Sequence record: MN850651.1
Length of the DNA: 64,000 bases
DNA from: Escherichia phage moskry
Direction: 5' to 3' (one strand)
Shown here one piece after another: positions 13,870 to 55,416 of the stretch. A program made the translations under genes and the position numbers. Position 1 is the stretch's first letter. Every line of letters begins with the position of its first letter. Under the pieces are notes generated by a model. The model made no database searches and was not told where the DNA came from. It saw only the letters and a list, made by a program, of their open reading frames with translations.

Positions 13870-13901
13870 CTATAGTATCATATACCAAATACGTTGTAAA
13901 C
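13870..13901 (-). promoter_or_regulatory. Early-type promoter (GTTTAC-N17/18-TACTATAG) for the small gene between 23 and 24
   Basis: Minus strand reads GTTTAC aacgtatttggtatatga TACTATAG; same architecture recurs at 8 other loci. Confidence 0.6.
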
Positions 13902-13907
13902 AATCTT

Positions 13908-13915
13908 TATAAATA
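13908..13915 (+). promoter_or_regulatory. Late promoter TATAAATA upstream of gene 24
   Basis: Exact TATAAATA about 28 nt upstream of ATG. Confidence 0.7.
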
Positions 13916-13942
13916 ATCTATATCACATAAGGAAAAAATGCA

Positions 13943-15226
13943 ATGAGTAAAATCCAAAAATTATTGCGTGAATCTACAACGTCTACTAGCAACTCAATTG
14001 GTCGCCCAAATCTCGTTGCTTTGACTCGCGCTACGACTAAATTAATATATTCTGACATTGTAGCAACACAAAGAACTAATCAACCTGTTGCTGCTTTTTA
14101 TGGTATCAAATATCTTAACCCAGATAACGAATTCACATTTAAAACTGGCGCTACTTATGCGGGTGAAGCTGGATACGTAGACCGAGAAAAAATTACTGAG
14201 CTCACAGAAGAATCAAAAGTCACACTAAATAAAGGCGATTTTTTCAAATATAATAATATCGTCTATAAAGTGTTAGAAGATACACCATTTGCAGATATTC
14301 AAGAAAGTGATCTAGAATTAGCTCTTCAGATTGCAGTCGTTCATTTAAAGGTACGGTTATTTTCAGATGCAGCGGTAACAAGCAAATTTGAAAGCTCTGA
14401 TAGCGAAATTTCTGATGCAAGATTCCAGATTAATAAATGGCAAACTTCAGTCAAATCTCGTAAACTTAAAACTGGTCTCACGGTTGAATTAGCGCAAGAT
14501 TTGGAAGCGAATGGATTTGATGCCCCTAACTTCTTAGAAGATTTGCTTGCTACTGAAATGGCAGATGAAATTAATAAAGATATTCTTCAGTCTTTAATTA
14601 CTGTATCGAAACGTTATAAAGTTACTGGAATTACTGACACTGGATTTATTGACTTGAGCTATGCGTCAGCTCCAGAAGCAGGTCGTTCATTATATCGAAT
14701 GGTGTGTGAAATGGTATCACACATTCAAAAAGAGACAACTTATACTGCAACGTTTTGTGTAGCCTCAGCTCGTGCAGCTGCTATTCTTGCTGCTTCTGGT
14801 TGGTTAAAACATAAGCCAGAAGATGACAAGTATCTTTCACAAAATGCTTATGGATTCTTGGCAAATGGATTACCTCTTTACTGCGATACCAACAGCCCGT
14901 TAGATTATGTTATTGTGGGTGTTGTAGAAAATCTCGGCGAAAAAGAAATTGTAGGGTCCATCTTTTATGCTCCATACACTGAAGGAGTAGATTTAGATGA
15001 CCCAGAACATGTCGGTGCTTTTAAAGTTGTAGTTGATCCAGAAAGCTTGCAACCGTCTATCGGATTATTGGTTAGATATGCTTTATCAGCAAATCCTTAC
15101 ACAGTAGCAAAAGACGAAAAAGAAGCGAGAATAATTGATGGTGGGGACATGGATAAAATGGCAGGACGTTCAGACTTGTCTGTTTTACTCGGTGTTAAAT
15201 TGCCTAAAATTATTATAGATGAATAA
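13943..15226 (+). CDS. 24: Capsid vertex protein gp24
   Basis: 427 aa, same length as T4 gp24; gp23-like fold region. Confidence 0.95.
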   Translation: MSKIQKLLRESTTSTSNSIGRPNLVALTRATTKLIYSDIVATQRTNQPVAAFYGIKYLNPDNEFTFKTGATYAGEAGYVDREKITELTEESKVTLNKGDFFKYNNIVYKVLEDTPFADIQESDLELALQIAVVHLKVRLFSDAAVTSKFESSDSEISDARFQINKWQTSVKSRKLKTGLTVELAQDLEANGFDAPNFLEDLLATEMADEINKDILQSLITVSKRYKVTGITDTGFIDLSYASAPEAGRSLYRMVCEMVSHIQKETTYTATFCVASARAAAILAASGWLKHKPEDDKYLSQNAYGFLANGLPLYCDTNSPLDYVIVGVVENLGEKEIVGSIFYAPYTEGVDLDDPEHVGAFKVVVDPESLQPSIGLLVRYALSANPYTVAKDEKEARIIDGGDMDKMAGRSDLSVLLGVKLPKIIIDE

Positions 15227-15238
15227 ACAAAAAAAAAA

Positions 15239-15254
15239 GGGACCTTACGGTCCC
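15239..15254. terminator. Bidirectional terminator between gene 24 (+) and rnlB (-)
   Basis: A10-GGGACC-ttac-GGTCCC-T5. Confidence 0.8.
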
Positions 15255-15261
15255 TTTTTCG

Positions 15262-16631: not shown

Positions 16632-16822
16632 TTCTTCACCTTTTTGTTAATCAAACGTTTACGGTATACAACTTTTTCTTTTGCTTTAAACTTTGACCGA
16701 GCTGTCTCGGCTTTAGTCCATAGTAATCCAACTTCTTTAGGTTGTAAACCGATTTTTTGAGCAATTTCTACGAATGAAAATCCCGCCTCATGTAATGTAT
16801 AAACTTCAACTTCAGCTCTCAT
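16628..16822 (-). CDS. Small putative HTH DNA-binding protein (T4 24.3 region)
   Basis: Track ORF begins with TTG at 16828; first ATG two codons in (16822); HTH-like EAGFSFVEIAQKIGL; basic C-terminus. Confidence 0.6.
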   Translation of the reverse strand: MRAEVEVYTLHEAGFSFVEIAQKIGLQPKEVGLLWTKAETARSKFKAKEKVVYRKRLINKKVKK

Positions 16823-16921: not shown

Positions 16922-18340
16922 TTATGGATATGTATAGATGATACCAGTTTCCAAAGCAGTTTTATGGATGATGTATCCATTACGTGATTCTTGAACATCA
17001 ACTTCTGGATAATCTTTCATCATCTTCTGAAGAGTGTAACGATGCAGGTAGTATTTACTATCTGGATCTTCAGTTTTCCAATCTTTACCTTCTTCAGTCA
17101 TTTTTTGGATTTCATCCATAACCCACCATCCGCACCAGATGTAAGCTGAAGTACGATGTGGAAGAGGATGAACATAAGGTAATTCACCTTCTGGTTCTGG
17201 AGCAACTTTATCGGTTACCTGAACTTGACCTTCTGCTGTAATAGTTTTGCTATCGTAATCAGTTGCAGTAATAGTTGCAGTAACTTCAATAGTTTGACTT
17301 CCAATAGATGAGGTATCAACGGTATATACATTAGTTGACCCTTCTACAGGAGAAGAATCTTTCTTCCATGAATACTCAATTTGCGCTTCTTCTGGAGCAT
17401 CAGTGACATTAGCGGTAAATGTAGCCGAAGCATCTTGCTGAACGTTAATAGAAGGAGGAGTCAATGTAACCCGTGGATTCATTGTCTTCTTATTAACCGT
17501 TAATGATACTTCATTCGAAGTAACTTCCTTTGCATCATAATCTGTCGCGGTTACTTGGGCTACACATTTAATTCTTTTTACCCCGCTTGTAGTCGGAGTA
17601 TAGCTAAATGTAGAGTTAGTTTCTCCACCAACCTGTGAATCATCTACATACCACTGATACGTAGCAGACGCTCCAACCGGTTGAGAAGCTAAGGCAGCAG
17701 TAAATTGAACTGGGGTTCCAATTACTCCGGCTGAAGGACTATTGGGAGTTACTGCCAACGTAGTTGTCTGTGTCTTTTTATTAACAGTCAGTGACACTTC
17801 ATTAGAAGTAACGCTTAGTGCGTCATAATCTGTTGCGGTTACTTGAGCCACACACTTAATTCTTTTTACCCCGCTTTCGGCAGGAGTGTAATTGAACGTA
17901 GCGTTAGTTGCTTCACCAACAGGAGAATCATCTACATACCATTGATAAGTAGCGTTTGCGCCTGATGGCTGCGAAGCTAAAGCGGCAGTAAATTGAATAG
18001 CTGTTCCTATTACTCCAGCGTCAGGGCTATTAGGAGTTACAGCTAAGGTAGTCGTTTGTGTCTTGTTTTGAACTGTGATAGTTGTAGTAGCTTCTGCTGT
18101 TTCAGCTTCAGCTTCTGGAACTGTATTTGTTGCAACTACTTTAATAGTCTTTTGACCGGCAGGTCCTTTTAGTACATAACTAAAAGTTGCTTCAGCTCCA
18201 TCTTGTGGAACATCATCCACAGACCAAGCATATGTAATAGGTCCATCTCCAGTTTGACCACTGGGTGTAGCAGTAAACTGCTTAGTCTCATCTATAACTC
18301 CAGTAGGTGTTTTAGGAGTTATATCAACTGTAAAAGCCAT
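16922..18340 (-). CDS. hoc: Hoc highly immunogenic outer capsid protein, 4 Ig-like domains
   Basis: 472 aa; Ig-like repeat units; T4 Hoc is 376 aa (3 Ig domains + capsid-binding domain); here one extra 96-aa domain. Confidence 0.9.
   Translation of the reverse strand: MAFTVDITPKTPTGVIDETKQFTATPSGQTGDGPITYAWSVDDVPQDGAEATFSYVLKGPAGQKTIKVVATNTVPEAEAETAEATTTITVQNKTQTTTLAVTPNSPDAGVIGTAIQFTAALASQPSGANATYQWYVDDSPVGEATNATFNYTPAESGVKRIKCVAQVTATDYDALSVTSNEVSLTVNKKTQTTTLAVTPNSPSAGVIGTPVQFTAALASQPVGASATYQWYVDDSQVGGETNSTFSYTPTTSGVKRIKCVAQVTATDYDAKEVTSNEVSLTVNKKTMNPRVTLTPPSINVQQDASATFTANVTDAPEEAQIEYSWKKDSSPVEGSTNVYTVDTSSIGSQTIEVTATITATDYDSKTITAEGQVQVTDKVAPEPEGELPYVHPLPHRTSAYIWCGWWVMDEIQKMTEEGKDWKTEDPDSKYYLHRYTLQKMMKDYPEVDVQESRNGYIIHKTALETGIIYTYP
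17489..18064 (-). repeat. Tandem direct duplication (2 x approx. 288 bp) inside hoc, each encoding one Ig-like domain
   Basis: Protein residues approx. 93-188 and 189-284 are near-identical (KTQTTTLAVTPNSP...VSLTVNK); corresponding DNA segments clearly similar by eye. Confidence 0.85.
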
Positions 18341-29465: not shown

Positions 29466-29492
29466 AACGTTTTCCTCATGTTGTTGATGGGA

Positions 29493-29524
29493 TGATAGTA
29501 TCACACATCCATGTGTTTGTAAAC
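29493..29524 (-). promoter_or_regulatory. Early-type promoter upstream of the alt.-1-like gene
   Basis: GTTTAC-N18-TACTATC on minus strand, overlapping the 3' end of alt. Confidence 0.55.
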
Positions 29525-35286: not shown

Positions 35287-35340
35287 ATTTTTCCACTTAC
35301 TAAAGAAATCGTTATACTCTAATCCGTTCTTGGATGTAAA

Positions 35341-35955
35341 CTACTTAACGAAATTAATTTCTACCGGATGAACAACAGGTTGAGCAGTGATATATTGAGT
35401 AATTGCTTTCATGACTAGAGCTTCAGAACCAGGATTTTTCTCAACGAATTCACGTGCTTGGTTATGGGCTTCAAGTTCACTTAGTAAACCGGAACGTTGG
35501 CATCCACGGTCTTGAGTACCCTGTTCAGATAAAAAGACGACTATGTATTTTTCATCGTCATACGGTTTAGACGGTTGAGCAAATGTTCCTTTACTTCCAA
35601 AAGGAGAGTTATGACGCCACATCACGCCGTGAGGAGTTTCAACCTTCGTATATTCGTGCGGGCCATTTTTCTTAGTTTCTTGATGTGGAACTTCGTGGAC
35701 CTTAGGGTTAGGACATTCAATAAAATGCTCATCTAAATCGGTCGAGAATATTAAAGTAAAACAATTACTAAATTTACCAACACCTGCCTGATAAATTTTA
35801 CCTTCAGAAGTTCTAATTTCACAAACTGAGCCAGCATCAGTAACTTCTAAAACTTCAAAAGGCTCGATAAGGTCATATGAGAACATGTTTTTAAGGCGTG
35901 GAGTAATATCCCCATTTTTAAAATTCATTTTATAAAAAGTATTAACTTTAAACAT
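35341..35955 (-). CDS. Hypothetical early protein, 204 aa
   Basis: Long ORF with ATG start; hairpin upstream; no recognised motif. Confidence 0.75.
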   Translation of the reverse strand: MFKVNTFYKMNFKNGDITPRLKNMFSYDLIEPFEVLEVTDAGSVCEIRTSEGKIYQAGVGKFSNCFTLIFSTDLDEHFIECPNPKVHEVPHQETKKNGPHEYTKVETPHGVMWRHNSPFGSKGTFAQPSKPYDDEKYIVVFLSEQGTQDRGCQRSGLLSELEAHNQAREFVEKNPGSEALVMKAITQYITAQPVVHPVEINFVK

Positions 35956-36356: not shown

Positions 36357-36395
36357 TTTATTCTCCAGATGTTTAAGTTGTTTGTTGGTACAGGT

Positions 36396-36426
36396 CTATA
36401 ATAACATAACCTGTACCAAAGTAAAC
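36396..36426 (-). promoter_or_regulatory. Early-type promoter upstream of the 121-aa hypothetical gene
   Basis: GTTTAC-N17-TATTATAG on minus strand. Confidence 0.55.
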
Positions 36427-36799: not shown

Positions 36800-36837
36800 T
36801 TTATTCTCCGATTGTTTTATTGATTAGGTGGTACAAG

Positions 36838-36869
36838 TCTATAGTAACACCATCCTACAGGATAGTAAA
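36838..36869 (-). promoter_or_regulatory. Early-type promoter upstream of the 122-aa hypothetical gene
   Basis: GTTTAC-N18-TACTATAG on minus strand. Confidence 0.6.
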
Positions 36870-36907
36870 CATCTTTTTTAAACTTTTTCTGCCCTAAACG
36901 CACAAAA

Positions 36908-40398: not shown

Positions 40399-40425
40399 TC
40401 TGTTTTCCTCATTGTGTTGGTAGAG

Positions 40426-40457
40426 TTATAGTATCACAACTCTACCATGTTGTAAAC
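40426..40457 (-). promoter_or_regulatory. Early-type promoter upstream of the 78-aa cd.x-like gene
   Basis: GTTTAC-N18-TACTATAA on minus strand. Confidence 0.55.
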
Positions 40458-40459
40458 CA

Positions 40460-40735: not shown

Positions 40736-40742
40736 AATTACC

Positions 40743-41138: not shown

Positions 41139-41139
<1 letters not shown>
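40948..41139 (-). CDS. Hypothetical early protein (cd.x-like)
   Basis: 63 aa ORF immediately downstream of pseT. Confidence 0.6.
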
Positions 41140-42225
<1,086 letters not shown>

Positions 42226-42226
<1 letters not shown>

Positions 42227-42525: not shown

Positions 42526-42582
42526 TTAGATTTCCTCAATTATCCATAGGAGCATTATACTCTGCTCCCGAGAGTTTGTAAA

Positions 42583-42807
42583 CTATTTTACTAAAGATTC
42601 AATATACTCATGAAGAGCTTTAGTCGCTACTGCCCACTTATTCTGATATTCATTTTTCAGATTAGCACGAGACTGAACTAACAAGCGGTCATTAGTCGGA
42701 GGCAAAGATTCTAATCGTTGAATCTGGCGTCCATAAATCATAGCCGCCATTTCAGATTCATAGATAAGCCCTTTAATGTATTCATGCTGTTCTTTAGTCA
42801 TTGGCAT
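42583..42807 (-). CDS. Hypothetical protein
   Basis: 74 aa ORF. Confidence 0.65.
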   Translation of the reverse strand: MPMTKEQHEYIKGLIYESEMAAMIYGRQIQRLESLPPTNDRLLVQSRANLKNEYQNKWAVATKALHEYIESLVK

Positions 42808-43441: not shown

Positions 43442-43929
43442 GTTTGAATAATCTCAATGATTTCGTCTCGGGATAATCCATTGATAAGAACTGTTTTAGG
43501 CCCGTCAGTTTGGATTTTGTATGATTCAAACAATACACACAACTCTTCTGCTGTATGATATGGGCTTGAGATTCCGAGACGGTTGAATTTGTCGGTAAGA
43601 GGGTCGCAAATAATATAGAATTTGATACCTGCGATATGTACGTTTGGTTGACTAATATTAATGAACACATTAGCGTCATATTTAGTCAAATTGTTTTGAA
43701 GAAATTCTACCATAGCATTAACTGCTTCTGGCATCGCTTCGCGTTTCTCTTCAGCGTATCGGGTTGAATACTCTTTTTGTTTTACTTTCTTTTTAAGATT
43801 TTTGGCCAGTGTAACACGTAGGTCAGTAAGATAACCAACTGGACGTCCTTTCTTAAAGACCCGGATTCCGTCAGTTGTGTCTCCAAAAGCGTTTACGACC
43901 ATATCGTTAGTAATCAATTGCATATTCAT
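43429..43929 (-). CDS. alc: Alc, inhibitor of host transcription on dC-containing DNA
   Basis: Track ORF 180 aa; internal start MNMQLITNDMVVNAFGDTTDGIR with GAGGAG SD; early promoter lies downstream of the track start, supporting the shorter form (about 166 aa; T4 Alc 167 aa). Confidence 0.85.
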   Translation of the reverse strand: MNMQLITNDMVVNAFGDTTDGIRVFKKGRPVGYLTDLRVTLAKNLKKKVKQKEYSTRYAEEKREAMPEAVNAMVEFLQNNLTKYDANVFINISQPNVHIAGIKFYIICDPLTDKFNRLGISSPYHTAEELCVLFESYKIQTDGPKTVLINGLSRDEIIEIIQTCLK

Positions 43930-43956
43930 AATTTTCTCCTCGTGTTGTTGATAAAC

Positions 43957-43988
43957 CCATAGTATCACCATCCTTGGTGTTTGTAAAC
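43957..43988 (-). promoter_or_regulatory. Early-type promoter upstream of alc
   Basis: GTTTAC-N18-TACTATGG on minus strand between rnlA and alc. Confidence 0.6.
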
Positions 43989-43990
43989 CG

Positions 43991-45124
<1,134 letters not shown>

Positions 45125-45141
45125 TCAGTTAGTTTTTTTAA

Positions 45142-45171
45142 ATTGTACCACAATCCTTGTGGTATGTAAAC
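45142..45171 (-). promoter_or_regulatory. Early-type promoter upstream of rnlA with a hairpin in the spacer
   Basis: GTTTAC-N18-TACAAT on minus strand; spacer contains inverted repeat TACCACA...TGTGGTA. Confidence 0.55.
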
Positions 45172-45581
45172 TACTTTTTCTTATGTTGGATATTCCAAGG
45201 CGGGTTGAACTTTTTGATAAAAAGTGGTTCTTCAAGGTCCATTGTTGCGATGGTCATTGAACCAAGTTCGTTGGTGACTGAAAGGTCAAAACATTGGCGG
45301 GCCCAGAATTCAACCTTTTTGCCTTGCATTAAGGCATCCAAAATCATAAGTGATTTTCTTGAATCTGAAGTCTGGTCTTTTCGATTTATGGCTGTTCGAT
45401 AATAGTTAATGCGTTTCTTTAAATTCTTGGTTTTACCAATATACACAAGTTCGTCATCTATAGCAATAGCGTATATGACATTTTTCTTATTAGGGACATC
45501 AACTGTTTTAATTGTTGCATCTTCTAATAGCTCCAATTCTGTATATTTAATAAAGGAATATTCGGCGGCAATATCTTTCAT
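45171..45581 (-). CDS. denA: Endonuclease II
   Basis: 136 aa as in T4 DenA; YAIAIDDELVYIGKTKNLKKRINYYRT...FNPPWNIQHKKK. Confidence 0.95.
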   Translation of the reverse strand: MKDIAAEYSFIKYTELELLEDATIKTVDVPNKKNVIYAIAIDDELVYIGKTKNLKKRINYYRTAINRKDQTSDSRKSLMILDALMQGKKVEFWARQCFDLSVTNELGSMTIATMDLEEPLFIKKFNPPWNIQHKKK

Positions 45582-45587
45582 AATAAA

Positions 45588-45603
45588 GTGGGACCGAAGT
45601 CCC
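45588..45603 (-). terminator. Hairpin between nrdB and denA (UUCG tetraloop)
   Basis: GGGAC-cgaa-GTCCC on plus strand; short stem. Confidence 0.45.
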
Positions 45604-45607
45604 GTCC

Positions 45608-46786
45608 TTAGAAATATTTTTTGTATGAATTGATTACATTTTGGTCTACATCATTATCAATTTGTGCGACAAGATAAGAACTGATTTCAACTTCCTGAGG
45701 AGCTGCTTGAACTAAATCAGAGTTCAGATATTCACGAATCCAAGGATACGGATGCTTGGTCGGAGCATCAGTGATTGGGCATGGCAAACCACACTGTTTC
45801 ATACGAGACACAGTCAAGTAATCAACAAAAGCACACATACTCTGCGTATTGATACCTGGACATGTACCATCTTTAAAGAGGTGTGCAGCCCATTCCTTCT
45901 CTTGACTATTTACTTCCATAAAAATGTCAACTGCTTCTTGTTCACATTCTTTAGCAATTTGAACCCACTCATCACCGTCAGTACCAGATTGAAGTTGACG
46001 GATAATGTACTGAGTACCCTTGAGATGGAGTTGTTCGTCACGAGCAATGAACTTCATAATCTTTGCATTGCCTTCCATAATTTCCATATTTTTATGGAAG
46101 TTGAAAGTACATGCAAATGATACATAAAAACGAATAGCTTCTAAGGCGTTGATAACATGCAAACAGAGATAAAGAGACTTCATTAGGTCATGTTTACATT
46201 CTTCCATGTGCATAAGACTATTTGAATACGCATCTAAATCATATTCATTTTCGGAAAAACATTTAAAAATTTCTTTAGCATTTTCCCATTCACGGGTTTT
46301 AATCAGAACGTCATCATAATAACGTCCAATGGATTCAGCTCGTTTCATAATAGCTTCATCTAATACAATTTCATCAAATACCTTCGATGGATCGGTATAA
46401 AGATTTCGCATAATATGAGTATACGAACGAGAGTGAATAGTTTCACTGAATGTCCATGTTGCGACCCATGTATCTAATGAAGGGTCAGAAATCAGTGCCA
46501 TAAGTACCGCAGATGGGGCCCTGCCTTGGATAGAATCTAATAATGATTGATACTTAAGATTGTTTGTAAAGATGTCCTGTTGGAACTGAGGAAGCTTATT
46601 GAACTGTGCAGAGTCCAACATCAAGTTTACCTCTTCTGGGCGCCAGAAAAATGACAAGGATTTTTCTATAAGTTCTTCGAAAACTTTATGACGCTGAATA
46701 TCATACCGTGCGAGGCCAAGACCAGAACCAAAGAACATCGGTTCATTCAAAACATCGACTTGTTGCGTGTTAAAAACTGTACTCAT
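45608..46786 (-). CDS. nrdB: Aerobic ribonucleotide reductase beta subunit
   Basis: 392 aa uninterrupted ORF (no group I intron, unlike T4 nrdB); di-iron/tyrosyl radical protein family. Confidence 0.93.
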   Translation of the reverse strand: MSTVFNTQQVDVLNEPMFFGSGLGLARYDIQRHKVFEELIEKSLSFFWRPEEVNLMLDSAQFNKLPQFQQDIFTNNLKYQSLLDSIQGRAPSAVLMALISDPSLDTWVATWTFSETIHSRSYTHIMRNLYTDPSKVFDEIVLDEAIMKRAESIGRYYDDVLIKTREWENAKEIFKCFSENEYDLDAYSNSLMHMEECKHDLMKSLYLCLHVINALEAIRFYVSFACTFNFHKNMEIMEGNAKIMKFIARDEQLHLKGTQYIIRQLQSGTDGDEWVQIAKECEQEAVDIFMEVNSQEKEWAAHLFKDGTCPGINTQSMCAFVDYLTVSRMKQCGLPCPITDAPTKHPYPWIREYLNSDLVQAAPQEVEISSYLVAQIDNDVDQNVINSYKKYF

Positions 46787-46841
46787 TATATTTTCTCACT
46801 TAGTTATTAACTCATCCATGAGTAAATTATAATCAAAAGTC

Positions 46842-49097
46842 TTAAAGCTTACAAGCAGAACAATCTTCAGCTTTAGGTGTTTCTAATTCATAGTCATCTG
46901 TACCTGACCCATCACGAGTGTTATGATAGTAGAGGTTTTTTCCGCCAAAGTACCAGAAGTAAAGCAGATCGTCAAGCATTACAGACATTGGCACTTTGCC
47001 TTTCTCAAAGACTGAAGGGTCGTAGTATGTATTAGCAGAAGCAGATTGGCACACCCATTTTAACATGATAACAACTTGTGTCAGATAAGGCTTATTACCT
47101 TTCTTAGCGAGTTTCCACGCATAGTCATAAAGACCCATGTTGTGTTCAATATTAGGAACTACTTGACGGAAATTACCTTCTTTAGATTCTTTAATACTTA
47201 CTGGGCCACGAGGTGGTTCAATACCATTTGTGCTATTTGAGACCTGGCTGCTTGATTCGCATGGCATGAGAGCACTGAGTGTACTGTTACGAATCCCGTG
47301 TTCTTTAAGTTCGGCTCGTAGTTCTTCCCAATCACATACATAGTTTGGGGCTGCGATTTGGTCAATTTTTTTATTGTACCAGTCGATAGGTAATTCGCCT
47401 CGAGACCATTTAGTGTCTGAATAATACTCGCAACGTCCTTTTTCTTTGGCGAGTTTGATTGATGCTTTGATAAGGCCATATTGCAATCTCTCAAACAATT
47501 CATGAGTCAAATCGTTAGCGTCTTCATATGAAGCGAAGTTAGAAGCTAACCATGCAGCATAGTTCGTAACACCAACACCAAGATTACGACGCTTTTTGGC
47601 TTTTAAAGCTTCTGGAACCGGATAATCTTGATAGTCTAACAGGTTATCAAGTGCACGTACTTGTACTTCGGCAAGTTCATTAATTTTATCTTGGTCTTGC
47701 CAATCAAATTTATCTAACACGAATGCAGATAATGTGCATAAACCAATTTCAGCATCAGGACCATTCACATCATTAGTTGGAATAGCGATTTCACAACATA
47801 AGTTACTCTGACGAATTGGAGCTTTTTCACGAATAAACGGAGTGTAGTTATTCGTGTTATCAACAAACTGTGGATAAATTCGAGCAGTACCAGAGCGTTC
47901 AGTCATGAACAATTCAAAGAGTTCTAGTGCTTTGATTCTTTTCTTTCTGATTGTTGGGTCTTTTTCAGCTTTCTCATAAAGCTCACGGAATTTATCTTGA
48001 TCTTCAAAGAACGAGTAATATAGTTCGCCTGACATTTCGTGAGGGCTAAATAAAGTAATATAATCATTTTTGCCAAGGCGTTCCATCATAAGGTCATTAA
48101 TCTGAATTCCGTAGTCCATATGACGAATACGGTTTTCATCCACACCTTTGTTATTTTTCAGAACTAATAGGTTCTCTACTTCTAAGTGCCACATCGGATA
48201 ATACGCTGTAGCAGCACCACCACGAATACCACCTTGAGAACAAGATTTTACTGCAGTTTGGAAATGTTTCCAGAATGGAATAACACCCGTATGTCGAACT
48301 TCACCCATACCGATCTTAGAACCTTCTGCACGAAGCATACCAACGTTGATACCAATACCAGCTCGTTTAGAAATATATTCAATAATCGATGCTGAAGTTT
48401 TGTTAATAGATTTTAACGAATCACCGGCTTCAATAACTACACAACTAGAGAACTGGCGAGTTGGAGTACGAGCACCTGCCATAATTGGGGTTGGCAATGA
48501 AACTTGATGAGTAGAAACGGCATCATAAAAACGAATAATATGTTTCAAACGGTCATGAGTTTCGTTTTGGTGTAAGGCCATGCCAATAGCCATGATAGCA
48601 AACTGGGGAGTTTCATAAATCTTCCCAGTTGTTTTATCTTTAACTAGATATTTTTCTTTAAGCTGCATAGCACCAGCATAAGTCAGGTCAAAGTCTCGTT
48701 CATGTTTAATCTGTGAATCGAGATAAATGATTTCTTCTGCTGAATATTGAGACAACAGCTCAGGGTCATATTTGCCTTCATTAACACAATAAGAAATATG
48801 GTCGATAAAAGCAGGCGGTTCAAACTGCCCATATACATCTTTACGAAGTGCAAACATTAGCCCTTTGGCGGCGACATACTGATAATCAGGTTCTTCGACA
48901 GAAATCGAGTTAGCTGCAACTTTAATACAAATCTTCTGGATATCTTTGGTGCTCATCCCGTCGACAAGATGGGTCTTAATTTCTTCGTACAATTCATATG
49001 GGTCAATTTGTGTTCCTTCACATTGCCAGGTCAGAACTTGGATAATTTTCTGTGCATCAAAATTTTGGGATACGCCACTGCTCTTAGTTACTTGCAT
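46842..49097 (-). CDS. nrdA: Aerobic ribonucleotide reductase alpha subunit
   Basis: 751 aa; T4 NrdA 754 aa; C-terminal CxxC; adjacent to nrdB with no mobE in between. Confidence 0.95.
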   Translation of the reverse strand: MQVTKSSGVSQNFDAQKIIQVLTWQCEGTQIDPYELYEEIKTHLVDGMSTKDIQKICIKVAANSISVEEPDYQYVAAKGLMFALRKDVYGQFEPPAFIDHISYCVNEGKYDPELLSQYSAEEIIYLDSQIKHERDFDLTYAGAMQLKEKYLVKDKTTGKIYETPQFAIMAIGMALHQNETHDRLKHIIRFYDAVSTHQVSLPTPIMAGARTPTRQFSSCVVIEAGDSLKSINKTSASIIEYISKRAGIGINVGMLRAEGSKIGMGEVRHTGVIPFWKHFQTAVKSCSQGGIRGGAATAYYPMWHLEVENLLVLKNNKGVDENRIRHMDYGIQINDLMMERLGKNDYITLFSPHEMSGELYYSFFEDQDKFRELYEKAEKDPTIRKKRIKALELFELFMTERSGTARIYPQFVDNTNNYTPFIREKAPIRQSNLCCEIAIPTNDVNGPDAEIGLCTLSAFVLDKFDWQDQDKINELAEVQVRALDNLLDYQDYPVPEALKAKKRRNLGVGVTNYAAWLASNFASYEDANDLTHELFERLQYGLIKASIKLAKEKGRCEYYSDTKWSRGELPIDWYNKKIDQIAAPNYVCDWEELRAELKEHGIRNSTLSALMPCESSSQVSNSTNGIEPPRGPVSIKESKEGNFRQVVPNIEHNMGLYDYAWKLAKKGNKPYLTQVVIMLKWVCQSASANTYYDPSVFEKGKVPMSVMLDDLLYFWYFGGKNLYYHNTRDGSGTDDYELETPKAEDCSACKL

Positions 49098-49393
49098 ATG
49101 TCCTCTATATTAAATTCGTCTTTAAAAAGTTTATTAACCACTAGAGCTATTATATCACCATGACAGGCTTTTGGTTTACATGTGCATCCCAGACGCATAC
49201 CACGTAAAGGTTCTAGATGAGCTTTTGTGATTTCTCCACACTTAATTCTCTTAATAAAATCCTTTTTGAAAAGCTCAATAGCTTCTTCTCGGGAAGAGGC
49301 ATCCTTGCCTACATAATTTCCCCAGAATGTGCCACGATGAATATTAACATCAAAATCGGATTTATATTTATTCACAACGCGGCACATTTTCAT
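49088..49393 (-). CDS. Hypothetical protein (nrdA.1 position)
   Basis: 101 aa ORF, Cys-rich (CGE...CTCKPKACHGD). Confidence 0.7.
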   Translation of the reverse strand: MKMCRVVNKYKSDFDVNIHRGTFWGNYVGKDASSREEAIELFKKDFIKRIKCGEITKAHLEPLRGMRLGCTCKPKACHGDIIALVVNKLFKDEFNIEDICK

Positions 49394-49647
49394 TACATGT
49401 CCTCTGCAATAATTTCTTCGTATTCTTTAGGAGTCAAGACCGTGATATTAAAATAAACCAACGGTTCTTTTTCTATACCGAATCCACCACAGAATTCACG
49501 ATATTCATAAATTCGTTCATGTGAATAACAAATGAATCGTTCACCTTTAACTGTGATTTCACTATTTGGTGAAGGGATATCCAGTTCACTTGGATTTTTC
49601 ATTTCAAAAATTGTGGTGCCATATGAATTAATAAAACGTAAAATCAT
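49393..49647 (-). CDS. Hypothetical protein (nrdA.2 position)
   Basis: 84 aa ORF between td and nrdA.1. Confidence 0.7.
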   Translation of the reverse strand: MILRFINSYGTTIFEMKNPSELDIPSPNSEITVKGERFICYSHERIYEYREFCGGFGIEKEPLVYFNITVLTPKEYEEIIAEDM

Positions 49648-49648
49648 T

Positions 49649-50509
49649 TTATACCGCCATTTTAGCTTTGATAGCTGGATGAGATTCGTAATTTTTAAGA
49701 ACGAAATCAGAATGTGTCATCGTTCCAGTAACCCAGTCCATTTGGATTTTTGTAGGCCAATTCTCAAAATTACTAGGCCAATTAATTTCAAGAGAACATA
49801 ACTCTTTAGGTTCACGACGAAGAACTTCTTTGCATTGTTCTACATGATTGCTGTAGATATGCGTGTTGCCGCCTGAGAACACTAAATCACCTGGGATAAG
49901 GTTACACATCTTCGCTACAATATGCGTCAAGGCAGCGTACGAGGCAATGTTGAACGGCAGGCCCAAGAAAACATCTACACTGCGTTGATACCATTGTAAA
50001 TCAAGATGCCCATTACGCACATTAAATTGATAGAACATATGACAAGGAGGAAGAGCCATTTGGTCAATTTCGGCAGGGTTCCATGCAGAAACTATTTGAC
50101 GACGATCATTAGGAAGAGCTTTAATACGGTCGATAGTTTTGACCAATTGGTCTACACCACCAAAATCACGCCATTGCTTACCATAAATAGGACCAAGTTC
50201 GCCGCTATGATATCCAAGGTCTTTTGCCTGATTTTCATAGTTGTCGTCCCAAATAGTTTTACCTTGAATAAGACTACCATGAGTACGAATACGCAAATCA
50301 TTAACATTGGTAGAACCAGACATGAACCACAGTAACTCGGCAATACAAGCTTTCCATGCAAGCTTCTTGGTTGTTACTGCAGGAAATCCTTTAGTAAGGT
50401 CCCAACGCAATTTAGTTCCGAATAGAGCAATTGTTCCTGTGCCTGTTCGGTCGTCTGTTTCGTAGCCATTTTCTAAGATATCTTTAATCAGGTATTGGTA
50501 TTGTTTCAT
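49649..50509 (-). CDS. td: Thymidylate synthase (intron-less)
   Basis: 286 aa continuous ORF, same length as spliced T4 TS; motifs LPPCH and DRRQIVSAWNP; no intron or I-TevI. Confidence 0.96.
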   Translation of the reverse strand: MKQYQYLIKDILENGYETDDRTGTGTIALFGTKLRWDLTKGFPAVTTKKLAWKACIAELLWFMSGSTNVNDLRIRTHGSLIQGKTIWDDNYENQAKDLGYHSGELGPIYGKQWRDFGGVDQLVKTIDRIKALPNDRRQIVSAWNPAEIDQMALPPCHMFYQFNVRNGHLDLQWYQRSVDVFLGLPFNIASYAALTHIVAKMCNLIPGDLVFSGGNTHIYSNHVEQCKEVLRREPKELCSLEINWPSNFENWPTKIQMDWVTGTMTHSDFVLKNYESHPAIKAKMAV

Positions 50510-51093
50510 TTATAAACGCTCTCAGTAATTTCGGTGAGTTCATCGATTCTGTAGTAATGAGATTCTACCATAGAACGTTGAAGCATAATATCTTGGATGA
50601 AATCTTTATCAAGTTGAACGTCTGAATTAACACGAGATTTCTTAATGATTTTAGTCATCACGATTTCATCGGCATAAGGCAGTGCTTGTTTCAACAGAGC
50701 TGGACCGCCAATAACCGAGACATCAACATGTTCAGTAGAAAGTTTAAACGGTACGTCAGTTGCAGGGCTAAACAGGTTAATTTCACCACCTGTTACCAAG
50801 GTAATAAATTCAGATTGGGTGATATAGAACCGTGCAAGTTCATCAGTTTTAGTCCTAGGCAGTTTTCTGGCCATATCAGTGACAACCACATGAGTACGAT
50901 CTGGGAGTAGACGAGGTAATGATGCAAAAGTCTTAGCACCCATAACCATTACAGTGTTTTTAGTGCGAGCAACAAAGTTACTCATATCTTGTTTGATATG
51001 CTTCCATGGAAGTCCATCACCTAATCCAAAAGCATATTCCAGTTTATCATCAACTGTTTTAGACGGTGCGCATGCGAATACTAATTTAAGCAT
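50506..51093 (-). CDS. frd: Dihydrofolate reductase
   Basis: 195 aa; T4 Frd 193 aa; td-frd overlap as in T4. Confidence 0.93.
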   Translation of the reverse strand: MLKLVFACAPSKTVDDKLEYAFGLGDGLPWKHIKQDMSNFVARTKNTVMVMGAKTFASLPRLLPDRTHVVVTDMARKLPRTKTDELARFYITQSEFITLVTGGEINLFSPATDVPFKLSTEHVDVSVIGGPALLKQALPYADEIVMTKIIKKSRVNSDVQLDKDFIQDIMLQRSMVESHYYRIDELTEITESVYK

Positions 51094-51095
51094 TT

Positions 51096-51344
51096 TTATT
51101 TCCTCAGATTTTTCTTAACAACTTTCCAATCAGCTTTAAATGATTCAACATCAGAGTGGTGAATCCAGAATCCTGCGCTTTCACCATCTTCGTAGAGTGG
51201 ACATCCATCACATTCTTCGTTCCAACCCATTTCACGTAAAGCTTCTTCAGCTTGTTCAAGGAGTTCAGCGTCTTTACCGACGATGTTGAAGTACCATTTA
51301 CCTCTAACTTCTGAATCTTTGATGCTCTGGCGTTGCAATCTCAT
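51096..51344 (-). CDS. Hypothetical protein (frd.1 position)
   Basis: 82 aa ORF. Confidence 0.7.
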   Translation of the reverse strand: MRLQRQSIKDSEVRGKWYFNIVGKDAELLEQAEEALREMGWNEECDGCPLYEDGESAGFWIHHSDVESFKADWKVVKKNLRK

Positions 51345-51407
51345 TTTATTCTCCTCTTCACTTTTATTTTATAGGGCTACTATAACATAGCCCTATCTTG
51401 TTATAAA

Positions 51408-51800
51408 CTACTTTTTAAAAGTTTTTTGCAAAAGTTTGATGATTTCGTCGACGTTAGTTTCATCCACGATACAATGGATTTTTGTTACACCTAAAGTTAT
51501 ACCTTCGTTAGTAGGTTGAGGCTTTACTAAATCTACCTCAGTAAAGTATTTGAACTCGTCAGGATAAATCTCAAAATAAGTTTCAATTTCACCACCGGCA
51601 GAACATACAGTACCATCTTCCATAGTTACACTTACTACGTTTGACGTATCGCTATCATAATCAGGTTCCATTCCGTTTACAACAAAACTAGGCCCGTGGA
51701 GTTCAATCAATTTTAACATCTTAGCGTTATTGTGTGGTGCTTCTTGAACAAAGTCGTCTTTAAATAAAGGGTTAATGATATAAGATTTTCCGATTTCCAT
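51408..51800 (-). CDS. Hypothetical protein (frd.2 position)
   Basis: Track ORF 163 aa overlaps upstream gene; internal ATG (MEIGKSYII...) preceded by GAGGAAA and following the upstream stop gives about 130 aa. Confidence 0.65.
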   Translation of the reverse strand: MEIGKSYIINPLFKDDFVQEAPHNNAKMLKLIELHGPSFVVNGMEPDYDSDTSNVVSVTMEDGTVCSAGGEIETYFEIYPDEFKYFTEVDLVKPQPTNEGITLGVTKIHCIVDETNVDEIIKLLQKTFKK

Positions 51801-51810
51801 TTTGATTTCC

Positions 51811-52062
51811 TCATTTGTTGATGTGTTGTAATAAAGATTCTGCAAACGTCTCATATGATTCCAGGTGTTCTTCTTTAATGCGAACTGCATGATTATCACC
51901 CGAAGAATAGAACATCTGTACGATAAGAGCTTCGTAATCAGACGAAATACATGCTACGTTTTCCGACTTCAGGCATTCATTGTATGTCGCAACTGGGTCA
52001 GTGAAAGCTGCAACGTTTTTGCTACCGCAGTAATCCATACTTCTTTGAATAATAAAAATCAT
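51811..52062 (-). CDS. Hypothetical protein (frd.3 position)
   Basis: 83 aa ORF, first gene after an early-type promoter below gene 32. Confidence 0.7.
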   Translation of the reverse strand: MIFIIQRSMDYCGSKNVAAFTDPVATYNECLKSENVACISSDYEALIVQMFYSSGDNHAVRIKEEHLESYETFAESLLQHINK

Positions 52063-52090
52063 TTTATTTTCCTCTCATTTGTCGATAAGT

Positions 52091-52121
52091 CTATAGTATC
52101 ATGTTTAAAGGAAAAGTAAAC
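52091..52121 (-). promoter_or_regulatory. Early-type promoter downstream of gene 32, driving the frd.3-frd-td operon
   Basis: GTTTAC-N17-TACTATAG on minus strand. Confidence 0.6.
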
Positions 52122-52152
52122 AACTTTTTCGGCAATTTACAGATACTCAAAA

Positions 52153-52170
52153 GGGAGACCGAAGTCTCCC
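52153..52170 (-). terminator. Intrinsic terminator after gene 32
   Basis: Minus sense GGGAGAC-UUCG-GUCUCCC followed by UUUUGAG. Confidence 0.8.
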
Positions 52171-52176
52171 AATTTA

Positions 52177-53076
52177 TTATAGACCAGCTAACAGGTCATC
52201 GAGGTCGCCATCGTCAGAAGACGAGGAACTCATGAAGTCATCTTCAGTTTTTGCAGAACCAAAGGCTTCCATGTCTTTATCAAAATCATCAAGGTCAGAA
52301 GCAACTTTATCTGCAACAGAAGCTGCTGCGGCTGCTGCACCACCAAGAGCGGCAGTACCAAGAACTTGATTAAATTTAGTATTCAATTCTTCAAACGATT
52401 TGAACTTATCTTTAGAAGTCATTTCAGAAAGGTCGACCATTTGTTCGAACAATTCTTTTTGGAAAGATTCATCATCAATGTTTGGAATCGCAGATTGATT
52501 CAGGAATTTAGATTCATCGTAGTTACTGAAACCAGAAACCTGTTTAACTTTCAGCACAAAGTTAGCACCTTCCCATGGGCAAGTTACATCAACAGGAGTT
52601 TCACCCATTTCAGTATCGACTGCAATCATTGCATTGATTTTGTCCCAAATCTTTTTACCGAAACGATATTTGAATACTTTACCTTCATTATCTGGAGCTT
52701 GTGGGTCTTTAACAACCAGAATATTAGCCCAATAAGAAGTTTTACGTTTCAGTTGAGAATATTCAGTTTTGTTGGTATTGTACAGGTCATTTTTACTAAT
52801 GTACTGACATACAGGACAAGAGTCATAATCGCCGTGTGTAGATGAACAGGTTTCAATATACCATTTACCATTTTTCTTGAACCCGTGGTTAACAAGAATT
52901 GTAAACGGAAGTGCGTCATCTGTTTTTGCCGGCAGGAAACGAATTACCGCTTGACCATTACCGGATGCATCGAGTTTCAGCTTCCATTCACCTTTATCTT
53001 CTGAAGAGAAACCTTTGTTACCATTCAGTTTAGCCATCTGAGCTGCGAGGTCTGCGGTACTTTTACGTTTAAACAT
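52177..53076 (-). CDS. 32: Single-stranded DNA-binding protein gp32
   Basis: 299 aa; [36 protein letters not shown]; acidic C-terminus; T4 gp32 301 aa. Confidence 0.97.
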
Positions 53077-53146
53077 TTTATTTGCCTTTATTTAGATTAT
53101 TAATTAAATTTTACAGTTGGTTGCTACGACACTTATACCTCGTAGC
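53077..53146 (-). promoter_or_regulatory. Gene 32 leader: A/U-rich unstructured segment plus upstream hairpin (candidate autogenous translational operator)
   Basis: mRNA sense ...GCUACGA-loop-UCGUAGC...AAAAUUUAAUUAAUAAUCUAAAUAAAGGCAAAUAAA-AUG; resembles the T4 gene 32 operator. Confidence 0.55.
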
Positions 53147-53193
53147 TGGTATGTTTTATTTATATGGTAATTCTAACACAGATAAAATAAAGC

Positions 53194-53847
53194 TTAATAC
53201 TTACATGATTTTATTGTTTCTATGAACAATTTCTTAGCAGCATTTACATCGATTTGAAGTATTTTTCGATATGCCTTTAATTTGGTAGAATAATTTTGCC
53301 AGACTAAATTGTCAGTGAGTTCGTCGTGCTTATCTATAATATTCAAAAATGAGTCCAACAATAAGAAAGTCTCAAATGAAATTATATTGCTTTGTAGCAA
53401 TTTGAATATGTAGCTCGACTGAACGTTGTTATTATAATCAAATATCTCTTGAAGCGCACTAACTTCAACTTTCTTACTGAAATAGTAGATGTTACGTACG
53501 TCTTCAGCAAACGTCTCTTTAGCTTGTTTGAGACGTCCAATATATTCCCTATAGAAAACTAATGCATCAGCGTCTGATATCTCACCAATCCATGCGTCTT
53601 GGTTAGCAACTAAGTTGCTTATGAATATCAAGGTGAGTTCCTTCAATTTATATTTCTCTGCTAGTTTTTCAAAGAAATATTTATCTCGGCGTTTTTGATA
53701 CGCATTATCCGAAACACGCATGCACCAGTTATATTTGATTACGTCATACCGACCATTAAAATGTTGTTTGCACATCAAGTATAGTTTGTATACCGATTTT
53801 CCGTTAATATAACGTTCTCCATCAGGAGGCATGCGTATTTTAATCAT
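53194..53847 (-). CDS. 59: Helicase loader gp59
   Basis: 217 aa as in T4 gp59; MIKIRMPPDGERYINGKSVYKLYLM; no segG between 32 and 59. Confidence 0.93.
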   Translation of the reverse strand: MIKIRMPPDGERYINGKSVYKLYLMCKQHFNGRYDVIKYNWCMRVSDNAYQKRRDKYFFEKLAEKYKLKELTLIFISNLVANQDAWIGEISDADALVFYREYIGRLKQAKETFAEDVRNIYYFSKKVEVSALQEIFDYNNNVQSSYIFKLLQSNIISFETFLLLDSFLNIIDKHDELTDNLVWQNYSTKLKAYRKILQIDVNAAKKLFIETIKSCKY

Positions 53848-54182
53848 AATAAGAAATCTAACGTATTAGTTTTTTCACCACGAGCAACTGACGGGCGAAG
53901 CATGTTTTCGTCAATTGCTTCGCTTGTAATTTTTTCAACAATTCCTGTAGGAATAAATTTAGCAAATTGTGTTTCTGGAATAGAATTTTCTTCCAAGAAA
54001 GCAGTTGTTGCTTCTAAATAAGACATACCAAATTGTTCAACCATAGATTCGATAATGAATCCGTTTTCTTGACGGTCAAGCAATTTAGCGATATCATCTT
54101 TATCATGTTTTACTGCTAATTCTTGTTCAGATAAACCGGCCTCATCAACCGGTTTAATATCACTTAGTGAAAACTGTGTCAT
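53844..54182 (-). CDS. 33: Late transcription co-activator gp33
   Basis: 112 aa as in T4 gp33; synteny 59-33-dsbA. Confidence 0.9.
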   Translation of the reverse strand: MTQFSLSDIKPVDEAGLSEQELAVKHDKDDIAKLLDRQENGFIIESMVEQFGMSYLEATTAFLEENSIPETQFAKFIPTGIVEKITSEAIDENMLRPSVARGEKTNTLDFLL

Positions 54183-54429
54183 AAAGCTCGACTACCTCTT
54201 CATTTTCAGCTTCAAATTGGTCACGAGCGTCTTTATGATAAAGAGCTAACAAACGATTAAACATTTTTCCATCAACGCCAAGCTCTTCTTTAGCACGAGT
54301 ACGAATGTCTTTAATCAGTTCATTATAACCAGAAATTTTAAGTTTGTTATCGGAAGCTTCCTTGACTAGTTTAGCCAGTTCTTCACCATGCACATCTTGA
54401 TTAAATTCAACTGCTTCTTTCTTAGCCAT
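54160..54429 (-). CDS. dsbA: DsbA double-stranded DNA-binding protein (late transcription enhancer)
   Basis: Track ORF 95 aa; start at MAKKEAVEF gives 89 aa as in T4 DsbA, has GAGG SD and avoids overlap with rnh. Confidence 0.88.
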   Translation of the reverse strand: MAKKEAVEFNQDVHGEELAKLVKEASDNKLKISGYNELIKDIRTRAKEELGVDGKMFNRLLALYHKDARDQFEAENEEVVELYDTVFTK

Positions 54430-54436
54430 GTTTACC

Positions 54437-55354
54437 TCAGAATTCATTAATTACACTTGTTAATTTAGAAAGACCAGATTTTACAAAGTATGAATAAATC
54501 TTGCCTTTAGGTTGTTGTTTATATGAGTTATAATACTCTATAATGGTTGAAGCAATATTATCAGGGATATAATCAAAATCAATGAGAACCAAATTTTCTT
54601 GATACCGTTTATATTCTTCTGCACTTAATAATACTTCAGCTTGAGAACGGTCATTAGCAATTGCTTCAATAATTGATGTTTTCATGCTTGGAGTTCGTTC
54701 ACCTTCAACTCGAGTAAACCAGAAGTCACCACGAACTCGAACAGATGCAACACCATCCTTACGGTCGCCTTTAAGAATTTTAGTCATGCAATCAATTTCA
54801 GCAGAACCATTCTTAATTTTAACCCATTTTTTCTGTGGTGGCGACCACTGTTTAACGTTAGGATATTTGTGTAATTGTGTAAAGTCACCATCTGATGCAA
54901 CAATACATACTTTATGTCCAGCTAATGACAAATATTTAGTTAATACACCGATATGGTCGTCCGCTTCATACTTGTCAATATCCATTACAACGTATGGCAT
55001 GTATTTCTTAATCTCATCAACAACTTGATGGAGTGCAGTAAAATATCCTTCCCAATCCCACTTTGAAGCTTCACGATCGGTTTTACGATTTTTCTTGTAA
55101 TAGTAAGCAAAGTCACGACGCCAATAACCTGAAGTAGCATTATCCATACACAATACAAATTTTGTATAGCCTTGCTTACGGAACATCACTACGTTTTTAC
55201 GAATTGAATTCAAGATTACATGTCGAACCATTGGAACAGTAATTTTATCACCGTCTTCAAAGTTGTTTAATGCGGCTGCCAACGCAATGTTACTAAAGTC
55301 GGCAAGTGCAATACCTTCTTTGTAATCTTCATCCAACATCATTTCTAAATCCAT
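54437..55354 (-). CDS. rnh: RNase H / 5'-3' exonuclease (FEN family)
   Basis: 305 aa as in T4 Rnh. Confidence 0.93.
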   Translation of the reverse strand: MDLEMMLDEDYKEGIALADFSNIALAAALNNFEDGDKITVPMVRHVILNSIRKNVVMFRKQGYTKFVLCMDNATSGYWRRDFAYYYKKNRKTDREASKWDWEGYFTALHQVVDEIKKYMPYVVMDIDKYEADDHIGVLTKYLSLAGHKVCIVASDGDFTQLHKYPNVKQWSPPQKKWVKIKNGSAEIDCMTKILKGDRKDGVASVRVRGDFWFTRVEGERTPSMKTSIIEAIANDRSQAEVLLSAEEYKRYQENLVLIDFDYIPDNIASTIIEYYNSYKQQPKGKIYSYFVKSGLSKLTSVINEF

Positions 55355-55384
55355 ATGAACCTCTTGTTCAGTTAGTCAACTTGT

Positions 55385-55416
55385 CTATAGTAACACACTC
55401 ATTTGAAAGCGTAAAC
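55385..55416 (-). promoter_or_regulatory. Early-type promoter upstream of rnh
   Basis: GTTTAC-N18-TACTATAG on minus strand in the rnh/34 divergent intergenic region. Confidence 0.6.

Follow-up and report, generated by a model that had tools for sequence, protein, structure and literature searches.

The stretch analysed here comprises 64,000 nucleotides (nt) of Escherichia phage moskry (sequence record MN850651.1), hereafter the window, in which the motif GTTTAC-N17/18-TA(C/T)TAT(A/G)G recurs on the minus strand ahead of early genes. We conclude, with a probability of about 0.9, that the motif copies are sigma-70-dependent early promoters of a T4-type (RB69-like) phage. An earlier note, made from the sequence alone, had taken the motif as a hint of a lineage-specific promoter variant. 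This claim to novelty is wrong: the motif is the textbook T-even early promoter, set in cassettes of the promoter-early stem-loop (PeSL) style, and the promoter positions in the window were already catalogued in 2006 in RB69, the type phage of the genus.

The motif copies are genuine and confined to one strand

All nine sites listed in the earlier note were present at their coordinates on the minus strand. The proposed consensus fitted six of them exactly (13870-13901, 36396-36426, 36839-36870, 43957-43988, 52091-52121 and 55385-55416), and the remaining three deviated in the last bases or in the hexamer: 29493-29524 ends in TACTATCA, 40426-40457 ends in TACTATAA, and 45142-45171 reads TACAATTT, with TACAAT as hexamer. 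A seventh exact match, absent from the list, was found at 16718-16749. Searching the window for GTTTAC-N16-19-TAYTATRG thus returned seven exact matches, all on the minus strand, against 0.00 expected from 100 dinucleotide-preserving shuffles, none of which held a match.

An independent test was provided by RB69, for which 58 early promoters have been predicted (Nolan, Petrov, Bertrand, Krisch and Karam 2006, Virol J 3:30, Additional file 3). An nhmmer profile built from the 45 predictions lying outside the region homologous to the window detected, at E<0.01, 13 sites in the window, none of them on the plus strand (binomial p = 2e-4), the next match having an E-value of 0.12. These were the nine listed sites, 16718-16749, 42554-42583 (TATAAT), 51379-51408 (GTTTAT...TATAGT) and a weak site at 35311-35341 (TATAAC, 19-nt gap). 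Conversely, all 13 RB69 predictions in the homologous region mapped onto the window, with 86-100% identity. Because seven exact matches were found where none was expected and the 13 profile matches fall on one strand, a chance origin of the motif copies is excluded.

All sites are co-oriented with the genes that they precede, namely alt.-3, 30.7, 30.8, cd.2, alc, rnlA, frd.1, rnh and small open reading frames (ORFs). The proposed kinship with T4 early promoters was borne out, since the sites possess every element of a T4 early promoter and the genes downstream of them are orthologous to T4 early genes. At three of them (the promoters at 29524, 42583 and 45171) the upstream gene ends in a TAG codon that overlaps the G of GTTTAC.

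Promoter anatomy

Positions were counted in the 12 strong sites aligned on the hexamer. The -35 region, at -36 to -31, is GTTTAC in 12 of the 13 sites and GTTTAT in one; the sigma-70 -35 hexamer is TTTACA, separated from the -10 hexamer by a 17-nt spacer. Measured from the end of GTTTAC, ten of the strong sites have an 18-nt gap and the other two a 17-nt gap. An extended -10 element, TGn, is nearly universal (T-15 and G-14 in 10/12 each) and is missing at 16749 and 42583. The hexamer lies at -12 to -7, with T-12, A-11 and T-7 in 12/12, C at -10 in nine and T at -9 in nine; it is TACTAT in eight promoters and TATTAT, TATAAT, TACAAT or TATAGT in one each. A TAYWAT-type -10 element (T-12, A-11, T-7 and a spacing of 17 +/- 1 bp) was found in 12/13 sites, the weak site 35311-35341 lacking it (TATAAC, 19-nt gap).

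The 8-mer TAYTATRG of the earlier note corresponds to the -10 hexamer plus bases -6 and -5, which are A in 7 and G in 8 of the 12 promoters, respectively. To call the -10 region "consistently TACTATAG" was an overstatement, as TACTAT occurs in 8/13 sites and G at -5 in 8/12. Around the start, A is found at +1 in 9/12 promoters and T at +2 in nine, often followed by CAAC. The ATG start codon is 20-40 nt past +1 in 11/12, with a GAGGA-type ribosome site in the leader. The 23 nt upstream of -37 are 75% A+T and 43% A, compared with a strand background of 62% and 31%.

Proposed recognition by host RNA polymerase

The contacts proposed here are drawn from established sigma-70 promoter biology. Unmodified Escherichia coli RNA polymerase would recognise the sites at once after infection. 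The C-terminal domains of its alpha subunits would contact the A-rich sequence lying upstream of -37, sigma region 4 would bind TTTACA (the last five bases of GTTTAC and the next base), and sigma regions 2.4/3 would bind the extended -10 TGn. Sigma region 2 would bind TAYWAT, in which the critical T-12, A-11 and T-7 are retained, and the G ending the 8-mer, as the non-template -5 base, could contact sigma region 1.2. Transcription is predicted to start at the A seven bases past the hexamer, so that the leader would measure 20-40 nt and include a GAGGA ribosome-binding site. Having C/T at -10/-9 would be usual for the T-even box, and the strength of the other three elements would make it tolerable.

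T4 early promoters are described as "uber" promoters combining UP, -35, TGn and -10 elements, which beat host promoters for the unmodified sigma-70 holoenzyme and resist AsiA; TGn makes up for imperfect -10 hexamers, and a G at -5 of the non-template strand makes contact with sigma region 1.2, prolonging the life of the open complex (Hinton laboratory reviews). Because the window sites carry all four elements, we infer that the same mechanism operates here. The analysis itself shows the motif with its enrichment, strand, placement and orthology, the hexamer usage in common with T4 and the enrichment of hairpins; polymerase contacts, early timing in this phage and the role of the hairpins considered below are inferred.

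Mapped T4 starts were used as an anchor, and as a proxy, for the starts predicted in the window. In T4, transcription from Pe148.6 starts at map unit 150,727 and that from Pe40.4 at 41,225; the Pe148.6 start was mapped by primer extension, and this promoter is active 1 min after infection and classed as early (Patterson-West et al. 2018). In our pattern scan the corresponding T4 hexamers end at 150,734 and 41,232, exactly 7 nt before these starts. Pe148.6, upstream of T4 rnh, is the positional counterpart of window site 55385-55416.

Stem-loops and promoter cassettes

The inverted repeat that the earlier note had seen in the spacer of the rnlA promoter (45146-45164) does exist, and similar structures are widespread: about 40% of the promoters have a hairpin within or around the -10 region. 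At 36385-36419, 40418-40447 and 51371-51396 the -10 is surrounded by a perfect stem of 9-11 bp, and shorter spacer repeats are present at 29524, 36870 and 43988; 7/12 window promoters are without a strong stem. Folding of the segment from -31 to +12 gave z < -2 for 5/12 promoters in the window, 26/57 in RB69 and 10/23 in T4. We also paired the left arm of each promoter (-30 to -11) either with the right arm of the same promoter (-10 to +12) or, as a control, with that of another. Stems formed with the own arm were longer than those formed across promoters in the window (5.83 versus 4.16), in RB69 (5.47 versus 4.41) and in T4 (5.39 versus 4.27), with a permutation p of about 2e-4 in each case.

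The core of the 30.7 promoter, including the spacer, is almost invariant in T4, in Mosigvirus and in 14/15 viral contigs, while its flanks diverge. Relatives of gp30.7 and cd.2 in viral contigs provided 15 and 2 loci, respectively. The promoter stems at these loci are near-invariant, leaving too little variation for a covariation analysis; the variation seen consisted of one G-U change and the loss of the hairpin in one distant relative.

These units match the published PeSL cassette, which contains an active early promoter and whose stem-loops lie between -35 and -10, or overlap the -10, in RB49 and phi1; one RB49 stem-loop acted as a terminator in a lacZ reporter (Arbiol et al. 2010). Proposed functions of this design are the attenuation or ending of upstream read-through and a role as a recombination point. 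PeSL-mediated shuffling is documented for RB49/phi1, PST/T4 and nt-1/KVP40 (Arbiol et al. 2010; Comeau et al. 2014). A repeat search in the window independently recovered families of cassettes extending from the start codon up to the -35: D2 has three copies of 64 nt (29461-29524, 40394-40457 and 43925-43988), D5 two copies of 55 nt (36352-36406 and 36795-36849) and D9 two copies of 44 nt (13838-13881 and 52059-52102). The alt.-3 and alc cassettes (T4, NC_000866, 123064-123093 and 136307-136336; window, 29461-29524 and 43925-43988) share 98% identity in T4 and 67% in the window, as against 45-52% from one phage to the other, which suggests that promoter cassettes have been exchanged within genomes.

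Two interpretations go beyond the assignment as early promoters. In the first, which we consider rather unlikely, the hairpins in the spacer and -10 region would be selected as RNA structures while the cassettes evolve in concert within each genome. With a 3' arm reaching to about +3 relative to the local start, such hairpins would form only in read-through transcripts from upstream promoters. If this were true, they would insulate each early cassette and mark the 3' ends of upstream mRNAs, and concerted evolution would explain why T4 and RB69-like phages prefer different bases after the hexamer, including the more frequent G at -5 in the RB69 lineage. The PeSL idea would then also cover promoters of T-even phages and of Mosigvirus in which the -10 itself is enclosed by the stem.

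In the second, the units would primarily be recombination cassettes kept similar by exchange, with promoter activity secondary or variable. The families running from -35 to ATG, the greater likeness of the alt.-3 and alc cassettes within than between phages, the weak promoter inside a segment replaced relative to RB69 and the shuffling documented in other phages all point in this direction. However, the signal of concerted evolution comes from a single cassette pair, and most indel breakpoints between the window and RB69 lie away from promoters. Moreover, PeSLs by definition contain active early promoters, so that recombination complements promoter function and does not replace it. We therefore consider it rather unlikely that recombination is the primary role of these units.

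Several observations weigh against the assignment of the sites as early promoters in PeSL-style cassettes. A generic sigma-70 promoter scan of 35001-55000 showed no enrichment, with 74 promoters found versus 66 +/- 7 expected; the evidence therefore rests on the T4-specific form of the motif. The RB69 early-promoter list is itself a computational prediction. Site 16718-16749 sits within a coding region (the 24.3 reading frame), and 35311-35341 combines a poor hexamer with a 19-nt gap. Apart from the separate terminator of gene 32, the hairpins are not followed by a T-run, and any role of theirs as terminators would be putative. Finally, window-versus-RB69 indel breakpoints mostly do not adjoin promoters: among them, only the replaced segment 35102-35949 holds a (weak) promoter, and about 280 bp separate the end of the DAHP synthase insertion from the nearest promoter.

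TACTAT is the commonest early -10 box of T4

The earlier note had set the -10 region of the window apart as a possible lineage-specific variant. The T4 RefSeq record has no annotated promoter features except an early-promoter note between cd.2 and cd.3, and T4 sites were therefore defined by an unbiased pattern scan. The pattern GT[TG]TAC-N17-19-TANNNT, in which hexamer positions 3-5 are free, was applied to the window, the whole RB69 genome and the T4 genome minus 3 kb. Matches on the minus and plus strands numbered 14/0 in the window, 48/8 in RB69 and 41/3 in T4; given this strand bias, nearly all minus-strand matches are genuine.

TACTAT was the plurality hexamer both in T4 (15/41, followed by TATAAT 8, TATAGT 5 and TATTAT 5) and in RB69 (15/48, followed by TATAGT 8, TATTAT 7 and TATAAT 7), with no difference between the two phages (Fisher p = 0.66). 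The share of TAYTAT was also alike (22/48 in RB69 and 20/41 in T4, p=0.83), and the TACTAT content of the window (8/13) did not differ significantly from that of T4 (p=0.20). TACTAT is thus the commonest early -10 box of T4 and no departure from it. T4 site 8189-8218, one of those with TACTAT, would be P8.1, judging from its map position only. In keeping with these counts, the published early consensus of PST and T4 is TTTACW-N17-TAYWAT, while that of RB49 and phi1 is a near-perfect TTGACA-N17-TATAAT (Comeau, Arbiol and Krisch 2014).

The idea that RB69-like phages evolved a distinct -10 box, TACTATAG, with a changed mode of recognition finds some support in the matched positions, where TACTAT occupies six of eight window promoters and two of their T4 counterparts, and in the higher frequency of G at -5 in RB69 (18/43) than in T4 (9/40). 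At the eight positions, however, the hexamers are freely swapped: rnh has TATAAT in T4 and TACTAT in the window, and frd.1 has TACTAT in T4 and TATAGT in the window. The richness of the window in TACTAT reflects which variant occupies each position. The difference at -5 is weak (p=0.07 with matched unbiased site sets) and inflated by paralogous copies, AGTCCTA occurring seven times in RB69 and ACAACTA seven times in T4. We had considered the -5 G as a lineage marker and rejected it, as p=0.011 was obtained only with a biased site set. With genome-wide hexamer usage alike and TAYWAT already the published T4/PST consensus, a lineage-specific -10 box appears very unlikely.

The rnh promoter may have a double role

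Site 55385-55416 carries GCTT, the core of the MotA box, at -30 to -27 alongside the early -35 GTTTAC. Its RB69 orthologue has been predicted twice, as early promoter Pe:149309 and as overlapping middle promoter Pm:149298, and T4 Pe148.6, at the same position, shows an unexplained dependence on MotA (Patterson-West et al. 2018). From these coinciding signals, the rnh promoter may function in the early as well as the middle programme. The proposal that the sites in general are MotA/AsiA-dependent middle promoters, and not early ones, would draw on the same evidence. The other 12 sites, however, have a sigma-70 type -35 without GCTT at -30 to -27, the RB69 middle-promoter list includes none of their orthologues, and Pe148.6 itself is active at 1 min and classed as early, which makes this proposal most improbable. 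A late-promoter reading was dropped, since TATAAATA is missing from every site and the genes that follow are early ones on the early strand.

Catalogue of sites

The predicted promoters, their hairpins and a terminator-like hairpin are listed in Table 1.

Table 1 Predicted early promoters and associated hairpins in the window. Coordinates of the 12 strong promoters run from the -35 G to the predicted +1.
Feature	Coordinates	Strand	Sequence elements	nhmmer E	RB69 orthologue	Context
Early promoter	13865..13901	-	GTTTAC-N18-TACTAT-AGACTT-A; extended -10 TGA; exact match	4e-4	Pe:109605, 96% identity	Precedes 89-amino-acid ORF 13572-13841, between genes 23 and 24
Early promoter	16713..16749	-	GTTTAC-N18-TACTAT-GG; without TGn	1e-3	Pe:112451, 100% identity	Within 24.3 ORF, 82 nt upstream of 24.2 start codon
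Early promoter ahead of alt.-3	29488..29524	-	GTTTAC-N18-TACTAT-CA; spacer repeat ACACAT-GG-ATGTGT; GGATG/CATCC flank -10	7e-4	Pe:125323	alt stop codon TAG overlaps G of GTTTAC; repeat family D2
Weak candidate early promoter	35311..35341	-	GTTTAC, 19-nt gap, TATAAC	4e-3		Ahead of 65-amino-acid ORF 35089-35286, inside segment replaced relative to RB69
Early promoter ahead of 30.7	36391..36426	-	GTTTAC-N17-TATTAT-AG	1e-5	Pe:131670	
30.7 promoter hairpin	36385-36419		Perfect 11 bp, TTGGTACAGGT / ACCTGTACCAA			Encloses -10; fold -17.9 kcal/mol, z=-4.4
Early promoter ahead of 30.8	36834..36870	-	GTTTAC-N18-TACTAT-AG; spacer repeat ATCCT-GT-AGGAT	3e-5	Pe:132117	Shares repeat family D5 with 30.7 cassette
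Early promoter ahead of cd.2	40421..40457	-	GTTTAC-N18-TACTAT-AA	2e-5	Pe:134561	T4 counterpart is the early promoter noted in the T4 record between cd.2 and cd.3
cd.2 promoter hairpin	40418-40447		10 bp, TGGTAGAGTT / AACTCTACCA			Encloses -10; z=-5.4
Early promoter	42547..42583	-	Canonical TATAAT; without TGn; GGAGCA/TGCTCC flank -10	2.5e-6 (best match)	Pe:136687	Ahead of ORF 42226-42525; 6-bp stem 42549-42568, z=-2.5
Early promoter ahead of alc	43952..43988	-	GTTTAC-N18-TACTAT-GG; spacer repeat CACCA-AGGA-TGGTG	2e-4	Pe:138093	Repeat family D2
Early promoter ahead of rnlA	45135..45171	-	GTTTAC-N18-TACAAT	4e-5	Pe:139277	denA stop codon overlaps -35
rnlA promoter hairpin	45146-45164		8 bp, TACCACAA-GGA-TTGTGGTA			In spacer, reaching into -10; z=-2.4
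Early promoter ahead of frd.1	51372..51408	-	GTTTAT-N18-TATAGT	6e-5	Pe:145300	
frd.1 promoter hairpin	51371-51396		9 bp, ATAGGGCTA / TAGCCCTAT			Encloses -10; z=-5.4; stem-loop also found by promoter/terminator scan
Early promoter	52086..52121	-	GTTTAC-N17-TACTAT-AG	2e-4	Pe:146013	Ahead of ORF 51811-52062; about 30 nt downstream of gene 32 terminator; repeat family D9 with 13901 cassette
Intrinsic-terminator-like hairpin	52153..52170	-	GGGAGACTTCGGTCTCCC then TTTT			Directly after gene 32
Early promoter ahead of rnh	55380..55416	-	GTTTAC-N18-TACTAT-AG	3e-3	Pe:149309	

The hairpin at 52153-52170 is GC-rich and bidirectional, and together with the promoter at 52121 it forms a classic terminator-then-promoter junction. 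A conserved terminator downstream of gene 32 has been reported (Nolan et al. 2006).

Phage identity and gene context

Megablast of 36000-46000 gave 99.6% identity to Escherichia phage vB_EQ1, and many Mosigvirus (RB69-like) phages matched the same segment at 96-99% identity. On this sequence identity, the window belongs to an RB69-like coliphage of the genus Mosigvirus. Read from the annotation of vB_EQ1 and RB69, the window spans gene 13 to gene 37. Its gene order is that of T4: 23, 24, rnlB, hoc, inh, uvsW, uvsY, 25-54, alt, 30, 30.x, rIII and 31, continuing with cd, pseT, alc, rnlA, denA, nrdB, nrdA, td, frd, 32, 59, 33, dsbA, rnh and 34-37.

Several segments differ from RB69. An ORF of 211 amino acids at 929-1564 (plus strand), between genes 13 and 14, falls within a segment of about 610 bp missing from RB69 (window 939-1550). 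It has sub-threshold Pfam matches to the I-TevI DNA-binding domain and to NUMOD3, and probably represents a seg-like homing endonuclease that has inserted among the late genes. Between cd and cd.2, an insertion of about 1.1 kb relative to RB69 (39049-40147, minus strand) codes for a 330-amino-acid DAHP synthase (Pfam DAHP_synth_1, E=7e-75) and a small ORF. This host-like enzyme of the aromatic amino acid pathway, located inside an early-gene cluster, is annotated in several close relatives. The replaced segment 35102-35949 measures 847 bp in the window and 283 bp in RB69; its content, without RB69 counterpart, consists of a 204-amino-acid and a 65-amino-acid ORF, both without a Pfam match, with the weak early-promoter-like site between them. 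Part of hoc has also diverged, 17197-18000 giving no alignment to RB69. This gene contains a tandem direct repeat of 288 nt (17483-18058, 78% identity), which probably reflects repeated immunoglobulin-like domains.

Significance

As a discovery the motif matters little, the same positions having been listed for RB69 in 2006. Its use lies in annotation: 12 strong and one weak early promoter can be placed in the window, with predicted start points, and one of them (rnh) is identified as a possible promoter of both the early and the middle programme. The T4-specific model singles out these promoters, and a generic TTGACA/TATAAT scan fails to do so. The comparison with T4 also corrects the tempting misreading of TACTAT as a departure from that phage.

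Comparison with known systems

Compared with the E. coli sigma-70 consensus (TTGACA-N17-TATAAT), the window sites are alike in the position of the elements, in their spacing and in T-12, A-11 and T-7. They differ in having T instead of G at the third -35 position and C/T and T/A at -10/-9, and they add the near-universal TGn and an UP region, making a four-element promoter.

In RB69, the 12 strong window sites have direct orthologues among the listed early promoters, with 86-100% identity over 96-171 nt; coming from another isolate, the window copies show a few substitutions, located in the spacers and at -6/-5. One RB69 prediction, Pe:136969 (score 10.8), maps to the window yet reaches only E=0.45 there. 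The window in turn has one extra, weak site (35311-35341), in a segment missing from RB69.

Eight window sites have positional counterparts with the same motif in T4. Common to both phages are the -35 GTTTAC, the 17-nt sigma-70 spacing, TGn, a TAYWAT box with TACTAT as its commonest form, A at +1 followed by TCAAC, the strand and the gene neighbourhoods. What differs is the TAYWAT variant at a given orthologous position and the bases that follow the hexamer, where RB69 favours AGTCCTA or AGACCTA and the window AGACTTA, compared with ACAACTA or TACCCTA in T4. The form of the -10 region in T4 is TACTATAC, to be set against the TACTATAG of the lineage-variant reading.

Like PeSLs, the window units recur in intergenic gaps and combine an A/T-rich region with a sigma-70-like early promoter, a stem-loop that lies in the spacer or overlaps the -10, a Shine-Dalgarno sequence and a start codon. 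They depart from the published cassettes in that only about 40% of the copies have a strong stem and the association with indels relative to RB69 is not clear. The stems of RB49 are of the polyG/polyC type, whereas those of the window are A/T-richer.

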